From assembly GCA_000004985.1 (NCBI GenBank), contig GG739289.1: 2,119 nucleotides of DNA. The stretch is one strand, 5' to 3'. Made by a program: the position numbers and the translations under genes. Positions 3-2,119 of the stretch are shown in pieces. Each line of letters starts with the position of its first letter. Positions within the stretch are counted from its first letter, which is position 1. The notes under the pieces were generated by a model, which was not told where the DNA came from, ran no database searches, and worked only from the letters and a program-made list of their open reading frames with translations. The DNA comes from Naegleria gruberi (Eukaryota).

Positions 3-119
3 GATGCTTTGCACTTGCTCGTCACTTTTATTTATGACAGAAGAGTGGCAGCTGAGACAGTTGCTGGTACATTTGATTTTGATCCAACAAGAGCCAGAAA
101 CATTCTCCTGACTCAATAA
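3..119 (+). CDS. Possible C-terminal fragment (38 codons) of an upstream gene. The strand and frame assignment is tentative.
   Basis: Frame 3 is open from the window start to TAA 117..119 (...DALHLLVTFIYDRRVAAETVAGTFDFDPTRARNILLTQ*). GC is ~42% here against ~30% in 120..226. AATAAA lies at 162..167, 43 nt after the stop. Plus frame 1 (1..108) and a minus-strand frame (ATG 125..123 running leftwards off the edge) are also stop-free here, so the coding frame is not resolved. Confidence 0.2.
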   Translation, partial: DALHLLVTFIYDRRVAAETVAGTFDFDPTRARNILLTQ

Positions 120-226: not shown

Positions 227-1372
227 TCACACAAGTGAATTTGAGTTGATGTTTGAGTCAATCCAAAGCTTCAACAAAATAGACAGTGAAATACTTGTTT
301 GTGAGGCCCACCGTAGAGAATACTTTGTGCAGAAAGTTGATAATTCCTTCATTAACATTCTCACTGAAAGAGGTGACAACCCTACACTTGTTATTTCAGC
401 ATGCATTCTATCTCTTATGTGAATGTAGACGTTTTTACATTCTTCAACCAGTTTTTTCTCATCACCTTTGCAAGTAAGCATGTCATTAATCAATCTCTTG
501 GATAAAACTTGCATTTTATCATATCCTTCTATAGTATTACTCGACAGGAATAATAATACAGTGAGCGGACTATAGTTTCCATTCTTGGTTTCATTTAAAA
601 TTTCCAAACAATGCTTTTTGTCTAGGTTGTAAATTTTGTTGATCATTGTTTCTTGATTTTGTAGTCGTTCCTTTTCATTTGAATTGAATGTAAAAGCATT
701 ATTCAACTCTAGACAAAAATAATCATAGACACGAATAACGGCCAAACTACTTTCAAACCACAATCTACACTTGTAGATTATATTAAGCAACAGTAATGGT
801 CTGGATGGATGAGATAATGAGTTTTTTGGCACTTTTCTCGCTGCATATATTCTCATATAAAGGCATTCATCAAATAATAGATGTGATAGTGATTTTTCAG
901 AACAACCAACACCAAATGCAAATATTGAATGACTTCTTGAGCTCTTTGGTGGATTTTTAATAGTAAAAGAGTATACAAGAAAGTTGTCTGTGTTGTAATT
1001 TCTAATGTCCAACAAGTGATGTTTCATGTTCACTGGGTCAGATATATTAAGGGAGATGTATTTGGAAACTTCCTTACACCATGGCTTTAAAGGAGGTTGT
1101 TCTTCTTTTATGGGTGTTTTAAAGAGCTGCATAATCGACTCCATACAACCTTTTGATGTTTCCGATAGTTGGCTTCTCTCACCCGAAAGTGATTGATTAT
1201 TATCGGATGGCTCAACAGTGGAACATAAAATTTCCCATGTATCAGAGTTTCCGTAATTGTTTGCTATTGATATAAGGACTGAGTCGCTCTGGTATAAAGT
1301 GTCGAGCCCTTTGTTGTGGCCTGCAATTATCGACAAAAAGGAAAAATCAAAGAATGCCATTTTTTTAAGCAT
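227..1372 (-). CDS. Hypothetical protein, 381 aa. The N-terminus is signal-peptide-like, the protein is Cys-containing, and it has no recognisable domain.
   Basis: Complete ATG-to-TGA ORF (ATG 1372..1370, TGA 229..227) of 1146 nt. The sequence is ~67% AT, so random frames hit stops every ~15 codons, and the other five frames are closed across this span. GC content is modestly higher than in the flanks. The N-terminus MLKKMAFFDFSFLSIIAG has a basic n-region followed by a hydrophobic h-region. A second in-frame ATG (1360..1358) lies in a strong aaaaaaATGg context. No Shine-Dalgarno sequence is present upstream. Confidence 0.75.
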   Translation of the reverse strand: MLKKMAFFDFSFLSIIAGHNKGLDTLYQSDSVLISIANNYGNSDTWEILCSTVEPSDNNQSLSGERSQLSETSKGCMESIMQLFKTPIKEEQPPLKPWCKEVSKYISLNISDPVNMKHHLLDIRNYNTDNFLVYSFTIKNPPKSSRSHSIFAFGVGCSEKSLSHLLFDECLYMRIYAARKVPKNSLSHPSRPLLLLNIIYKCRLWFESSLAVIRVYDYFCLELNNAFTFNSNEKERLQNQETMINKIYNLDKKHCLEILNETKNGNYSPLTVLLFLSSNTIEGYDKMQVLSKRLINDMLTCKGDEKKLVEECKNVYIHIRDRMHAEITSVGLSPLSVRMLMKELSTFCTKYSLRWASQTSISLSILLKLWIDSNINSNSLV

Positions 1373-1680
1373 ATTGATAAGGATCCAGTCGTGATAGTCT
1401 TATTGGTTGCGTCACGATAAGAATGATGTAGATGATCTACTTGTTCAGTAATCTGCAGATTAACCTTATTCACAACGATATCAAACCCAAAATATGATAG
1501 ACATTACTTGCTTATCGATTATGATTCTAATATATTCTTGGACTGTTGATTGATACAACAACAGATCAAGAAACAAACAAATTATTTGTAAAGTTTGGAA
1601 ATCTAATTGGTTACTCTCTCCCACAATTTATCCGAAATGGTTAACTATCATCACTAAGAGTGAAAAGGAAACAAAAGAAA
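1373..1680. promoter_or_regulatory. Shared 5' and putative bidirectional promoter region between the divergent ORFs.
   Basis: This 308-bp AT-rich gap (~29% GC) lies between two ATGs that point away from each other. No ORF of meaningful length occurs in it. It contains clustered GATA-type motifs, a central AATATATT palindrome (1529..1536) and a perfect 13-bp dyad (1428..1440). Confidence 0.4.
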
Positions 1681-2119
1681 ATGTTCGACAATCATCGAGT
1701 CTTTTGTCCACTCCAGACGAGCAGGCTCTTTCGAACCCTCTTCCTTCTCCTTCCACTTTTATTTTACTGTTCATGTGAAATTATGAAAATCACATGTGAA
1801 TTGACTAGATTAAATTCTCAACAAATGATGAATAGCATGTTTTCACTTTCTGACAGTAAATCAAGCAACACTCAACAAGGAAATACCAACGTTCTAACCA
1901 AAGTTTACCTTATCCATTCTCAATCACCATATCCAAGTAATTACAATTGTGAAATGTATCCTTGCAAGAGTGTACAAGAGGCACTTGGTCAATTTGCTGT
2001 AAATGCAGATGTTATTCAGTTTATATCATCTCTCAATAATGGAACTGTTAAGACAATTGGAATAACTTTTGTAATAATGGCATCTGACAATTATTTTTGT
2101 GATTTCCACATGACAACAC
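1681..2119 (+). CDS. Hypothetical protein, N-terminal part (3'-truncated by the window edge). It has a signal-peptide-like N-terminus followed by an S/N/Q-rich stretch and then a Cys-containing segment.
   Basis: I translated this by hand in frame 1. ATG 1681 is followed by 146 sense codons with no stop through 2119: MFDNHRVFCPLQTSRLFRTLFLLLPLLFYCSCEIMKITCELTRLNSQQMMNSMFSLSDSKSSNTQQGNTNVLTKVYLIHSQSPYPSNYNCEMYPCKSVQEALGQFAVNADVIQFISSLNNGTVKTIGITFVIMASDNYFCDFHMTT. An in-frame TAA at 1642..1644 makes 1681 the first possible start, in an aaagaaaATG context with A at -3. The three minus-strand frames and the other plus frames over 1700..2119 all contain stops. The ORF is absent from the supplied track, presumably because it has no stop inside the window. 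Confidence 0.6.
   Translation, partial: MFDNHRVFCPLQTSRLFRTLFLLLPLLFYCSCEIMKITCELTRLNSQQMMNSMFSLSDSKSSNTQQGNTNVLTKVYLIHSQSPYPSNYNCEMYPCKSVQEALGQFAVNADVIQFISSLNNGTVKTIGITFVIMASDNYFCDFHMTT

Follow-up and report, generated by a model that had tools for sequence, protein, structure and literature searches.

The right-hand end of a stretch of DNA of 2119 bases, referred to here as the window, was found to carry a long open reading frame, designated ORF A, which begins at an ATG at position 1681 and runs off the right edge. The open frame is real and probably belongs to the beginning of an ordinary gene, cut at the edge. The preferred reading, to which a probability of roughly 0.55 is assigned, is that ORF A is the 5' part of a genuine orphan gene, translated from ATG 1681 and carrying a predicted signal peptide; that it belongs to a real gene, whichever start codon is used, appears appreciably more likely than this.

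Re-translation of positions 1681-2119 gave a product beginning MFDNHRVFCPLQTSRLFRTLFLLLPLLFYCSCEIMK..., with 146 codons and zero stops, and the frame scan led to the same extent. The original prediction, which had described a stop-free frame of at least 146 sense codons from this ATG across 1681-2119 and off the right edge, in DNA of about 67% AT, was therefore borne out, the measured GC content of the window being 33.8%. Frame +1 is open from 1645 to 2118, that is for 158 codons, and is the longest on the plus strand, where the runner-up open run has 86 codons; each of the other five frames of 1681-2119 contains 8-12 stops. The in-frame TAA that closes the frame upstream is followed by 12 sense codons lacking an ATG (a GTG is found at 1660), such that ATG 1681 is the earliest ATG of the open frame. 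Under other genetic codes, 4 and 6 among them, the ORFs were not materially longer. ORF A was missing from the ORF track for want of a stop inside the window, as had been suggested, since the list drops ORFs that cross an edge. The complete 381-aa ORF to the left, designated ORF B, lies on the minus strand, and the divergent arrangement of the two frames noted earlier was confirmed. The coordinates of all features are collected in Table 1.

Table 1 Features of the 2119-base window, with positions counted from its first base.
Feature	Position	Strand	Basis and remarks
Left-edge reading frame (frame 3)	3..119	+	38 sense codons, then TAA 117-119
ORF B, complete 381-aa ORF	227..1372	-	ATG 1372, TGA 229-227; orphan
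Divergent spacer ORF B/ORF A	1373..1680	.	308 bp, intergenic
Upstream in-frame TAA closing frame +1	1642..1644	+	sequence, frame scan
ORF A, 5' part	1681..2119	+	146 sense codons from ATG 1681; stop-free to right edge
Putative signal peptide, codons 1-32	1681..1776	+	hydropathy, charged residues
Polypyrimidine (CT) tract	1736..1754	+	19 nt, CCCTCTTCCTTCTCCTTCC; encodes most of the putative core (LFLLLPL)
Alternative start ATG, Met35	1783..1785	+	product would begin MKITCELTRLNSQQ..., without signal peptide

On composition alone, the probability of 146 open codons is ~2e-5 to 6e-5 per start. Dinucleotide-preserving shuffles were also made, and the longest open run in any of the six frames was recorded. 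Runs of at least 158 codons occurred in 0.065% of the shuffles of 1373-2119 and in 0.62% of those of the whole window, and runs of at least 146 codons in 0.115% and 1.1%, respectively. The length of ORF A exceeds chance for one window and is locally significant. Across thousands of AT-rich windows, chance ORFs of this size are expected, and length alone proves no gene. The statement that such a run is very unlikely by chance thus holds for this window, with p of ~1e-3 to 1e-2 by the shuffles, but claims too much when many windows are scanned.

An unlikely alternative, though one to be taken seriously, is that ORF A encodes no protein and is open by chance, within intergenic or intronic DNA, and that its apparent signal peptide is a CT-rich tract read in frame. 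The whole-window shuffles leave room for it, as 0.6-1.1% of them reach this length and a scan of many windows finds such runs, while the local shuffle p-value of 6.5e-4 argues the other way. The position of the frame is also hard to reconcile with chance: ORF A occupies the very place at which one would expect a divergent neighbour, the locus being ~60% coding without it. In addition, its ATG follows the upstream stop within only 12 codons, for which the chance probability is ~0.22.

The intrinsic coding signals bear on the same question. The codon-position periodicity of ORF A is not significant (chi2 p=0.20), and its amino acid composition is matched equally well by a random translation of the local nucleotides and by a yeast-like proteome, for which approximate frequencies were used. 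Near-random composition, a lack of significant periodicity, the absence of homologues and a low-confidence structure model, the last two described below, are all consistent with a chance frame. ORF B, however, presents the same picture. Its run of 390 open codons has a probability of (1-0.071)^390, or ~3e-13, at the stop frequency of the window, so that its length is far beyond chance, yet codon-position periodicity is practically absent from its 1146 nt (chi2 p=0.24), and its amino acid composition is near that of a random translation of its own nucleotides. How so long an ORF comes to be so random-like is unexplained. Because ORF B, which is surely not due to chance, is equally flat, flat statistics count little against ORF A; in this DNA they separate genes from non-genes poorly.

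Codon usage was compared by means of a sense-codon model trained on ORF B, with random codons of ORF A composition as the reference. ORF A was nearer to ORF B than random sense codons were (z=1.9, p=0.027), and in both cross-trained comparisons the ORF A frame was the best of six. This in-frame sharing of codon usage, though weak, speaks against a chance frame; other short open runs of the window scored about as high under the ORF B model.

As regards the start codon, translation would most likely begin at ATG 1681, the earliest in the frame and with an A at -3 (context aaagaaaATGT). The sequence AAGGA occurs 11-12 nt upstream of it, and the spacer includes a 6-codon uORF at 1637-1657. It is also conceivable, if improbable, that the gene is real and starts at Met35 (ATG 1783) or at Met49/50, in which case 1681-1782, with the CT tract, would be a 5' UTR or a promoter-proximal pyrimidine element and the product would have no signal peptide. 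The coding-like signal does sit from Met35 onward, both in codon position (chi2 p=0.03, the first 34 codons giving 0.36) and in codon usage under the ORF B model (p=0.014 and 0.50, respectively), and the polypyrimidine tract and an unusually long n-region point in the same direction. Tests on 34 codons, however, have almost no power, and the frame is open throughout 1645-1782. Both ATGs have an A at -3, but the context of ATG 1681 was rated better, ATG 1783 having T at -1/-2, and a ribosome scanning from upstream of 1681 would meet that codon first.

If translation starts at ATG 1681, residues 1-32 would form a cleavable signal peptide of the Sec/SRP type. Its n-region, M1-R18, contains D3, R6, R15 and R18, is net positive and, at 18 residues, is unusually long. 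It is followed by a putative h-region, T19-C32 (TLFLLLPLLFYCSC), in which 14 hydrophobic residues run uninterrupted between R18 and E33. This segment is the hydropathy maximum of ORF A, with a mean Kyte-Doolittle value of 2.07 over the 14 residues, and such hydrophobicity is reached by only 8 of the 2010 stop-free 14-mers of the six-frame translation. The original prediction had placed a hydrophobic core after a basic n-region; the core that it quoted, LFRTLFLLLPLLFYCSC, includes Arg18 and has to be redrawn as T19-C32. The candidate cleavage site lies after C30-S31-C32, before E33, and would give a signal peptide of 32 aa in total; Cys at -3 and -1 is permitted but is a minority choice, and positions -4 to -6 are without a helix breaker, Pro25 being at -8.

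The same prediction had offered a signal anchor as the other possibility for this segment. A membrane anchor would need an uncharged span of ~18-20 residues or more, whereas the span here has only 14 and is bounded by R18 and E33/K36; even the best 19-mer, which contains E33 and K36, averages only 1.71 on the Kyte-Doolittle scale. A signal anchor or transmembrane helix was therefore rejected, and of the two options only the cleavable signal peptide fits. A bacterial lipoprotein was likewise rejected, as neither L27-F28-Y29-C30 nor Y29-C30-S31-C32 resembles the lipobox [LVI][ASTVI][GAS]C.

The polypyrimidine tract is the sole pyrimidine tract of at least 12 nt in the window, and GC skew is strongly negative over 1601-1900. 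Alternatively, the tract may serve as a promoter-proximal element or as one of the splice-acceptor type. The nearest AG 3' of it is ~50 nt on, near 1806. When random ATG ORFs were generated with the Markov composition of the window, ~3.5% had a similar N-terminus by a crude criterion, a frequency that also suits a chance frame. A cleavable signal peptide on ORF A is a plausible and reasonable proposal, short of a finding, because of this likeness among random ORFs, the coding of its core by the CT tract and the lack of a codon bias shared with ORF B in this part.

The features of the predicted N-terminus agree in kind with those of Sec/SRP type I secreted proteins, namely a basic n-region, a 14-residue h-region, a candidate cleavage site with C30 and C32 at -3 and -1 and an acidic residue next, and, after it, a polar mature part that contains Cys and an N-X-T sequon. 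ORF A differs in that, at 18 aa for the n-region and 32 aa in total, its signal peptide would be among the longer ones, and its double Cys is uncommon. The likeness is to a functional class, not to a homologous family, and is silent on the role of the mature protein. The part that would remain after cleavage has Cys at 39, 90, 95 and 140, a single N-G-T sequon at residue 120 and 8 Met. On the preferred reading, the mature product would enter the secretory pathway as a polar protein, rich in S, N, T and Q, with at least 4 Cys and one N-X-T sequon.

A homology search with the 146-aa fragment, which had been proposed as a check, disclosed no credible homologue, either by phmmer among 1.84 billion proteins or in the family libraries. 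A word-indexed search of 5.8 billion clusters gave no match. The exhaustive phmmer search of the 1.84 billion representative proteins returned a single match, P0001, at E=2.8e-6 over 7 stretches. P0001 is a 589-aa head-to-tail repeat of seven near-identical 83-aa units, each of which shares 12/46 identities with ORF A residues 62-107. The E-value, however, sums seven copies of one weak stretch of ~25 bits, which on its own is far short of significance in a library of 2.4e11 residues. The repeat also contains the motif 'DSNP...RCDALPTEL', which we take to be typical of translated tRNA/SINE-like DNA. P0001 was thus rejected as a homologue, its score being a tandem-repeat artefact made of one insignificant stretch repeated. 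As this case illustrates, multi-stretch E-values against repeat proteins may mislead.

In the family libraries, the best matches of ORF A were below threshold: ssDBP in Pfam (E=0.17, 12.3 bits against a cutoff of 27) and an entry of E=0.12 in PHROGs. NCBIfam, PADLOC and PDB sequences gave no match, tblastn against phages and plasmids found nothing, blastn was likewise empty, and scans of viral and prokaryote genome contigs with back-translated patterns found no relative. An exact-protein look-up of the fragment returned no record. The single-sequence AlphaFold2 model of ORF A had a pLDDT of 42 and was unusable, and Foldseek of this low-confidence model against the PDB gave only matches of E>2, with no fold match. 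Paralogy of ORF A and ORF B was rejected, none being apparent on comparison of the two.

ORF B is an orphan as well. No homologue or family was found in Pfam, PHROGs, NCBIfam, PADLOC and the other libraries searched, pattern scans of viral and metagenome contigs gave no relative, and exact-protein look-ups from the M1 and M5 starts returned no record. Its single-sequence AlphaFold2 model (pLDDT 34) was unusable, and Foldseek against the PDB found nothing. The start of ORF B is not preceded by a Shine-Dalgarno sequence.

The peptide of the left-edge frame, DALHLLVTFIYDRRVAAETVAGTFDFDPTRARNILLTQ followed by the stop, is protein-like in composition, and this frame has the best codon-position signal per length in the window (chi2 p=0.058 on 117 nt). 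It matched Pfam DUF4476 at E=0.0044, over profile positions 57-90 of 91, below the cutoff, and this match was lost in the six-frame Pfam scan; a homology search with the 38-aa peptide padded with GG gave no match. An AATAAA is present at 162-167, 43-48 nt 3' of the TAA. Another gene, cut by the left edge and convergent on ORF B, probably ends in frame 3-119. Like ORF A, this frame is absent from the ORF track.

Together with ORF B and the left-edge frame, ORF A would bring the coding share of the window to ~80%, against ~60% when it is left out, and the spacers between the three frames are 107 and 308 bp. Given this compactness, the right end is likelier to contain a gene than to be free of genes for 440 nt. 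Over the whole window, CpG has an observed/expected ratio of 0.46, TG/CA of 1.35 and TA of 0.65. CpG loss accompanied by TG/CA excess is the signature of methylation-driven decay and suggests eukaryotic DNA or that of a eukaryotic virus. The Cys content of the ORFs is 3-5%. In the divergent spacer, sigma-70-like sites are at background level, terminators are absent and no Rfam family was found; nor did the window as a whole show an RNA family or a tRNA. A bacterial or phage reading is disfavoured by the CpG depletion, the Cys content, the background sigma-70 level, the absence of terminators and the lack of a Shine-Dalgarno sequence at ORF B. The phage, plasmid and prokaryote collections yielded no match, which points the same way. 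No viral contig contained any of the exact 32-36-mers taken from three parts of the window, and the 36-mer of the right end was missing from metagenome and genome contigs as well.

It seems very improbable that ORF A, and perhaps ORF B with it, is what is left of a mobile element, endogenous virus or pseudogene, with a frame still open after selection has ceased. Such an origin would agree with two orphan ORFs of random-like composition, and unannotated ORFs borne on repeats are often absent from protein databases. The six-frame Pfam scan of the window was empty, however, with no transposase, RT, integrase or other Pfam signal, and the window contains no tandem repeat. Its repeats, terminal or internal, are 15-22-mers at chance level only, and related copies were found in none of the viral, metagenome and prokaryote collections. 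A decaying element, moreover, would not hold 390 codons open in ORF B.

On the preferred reading, positions 1681-2119 would be the 5' part, or the first exon, of a genuine protein-coding gene that has no detectable relatives and sits in a gene-dense, AT-rich, CpG-depleted stretch, probably of a eukaryote or a eukaryotic virus. The 308-bp spacer would then be a divergent promoter region common to ORF A and ORF B. In having no homologue, a composition close to mutational expectation and a low-confidence structure, ORF A resembles the ORFan genes of AT-rich, compact eukaryotic or large-virus genomes, and its neighbour ORF B has the same properties; by comparison with that class, 'orphan' may here merely reflect an unsampled lineage.

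For annotation, the case indicates that ORF tracks restricted to ORFs with both ends inside a window hide edge-truncated genes, here ~20% of the window, and that edge-truncated ORFs should be reported as partial genes. The result stands as a note on annotation; its biology is ordinary and touches no new mechanism or open question. A further-reaching proposal, which we regard as tentative and rather doubtful, is that both ORFs are expressed genes peculiar to one lineage, an AT-rich eukaryote or eukaryotic large DNA virus not sampled to date, with ORF A founding a new family of secreted, Cys-containing proteins. If true, this family, for example of an effector or a surface protein, would have no relative among ~15 billion catalogued proteins. 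In biological terms little is gained unless the source organism is identified, in which case a poorly sampled lineage would acquire two or three further orphan genes, one of them perhaps encoding a secreted protein.
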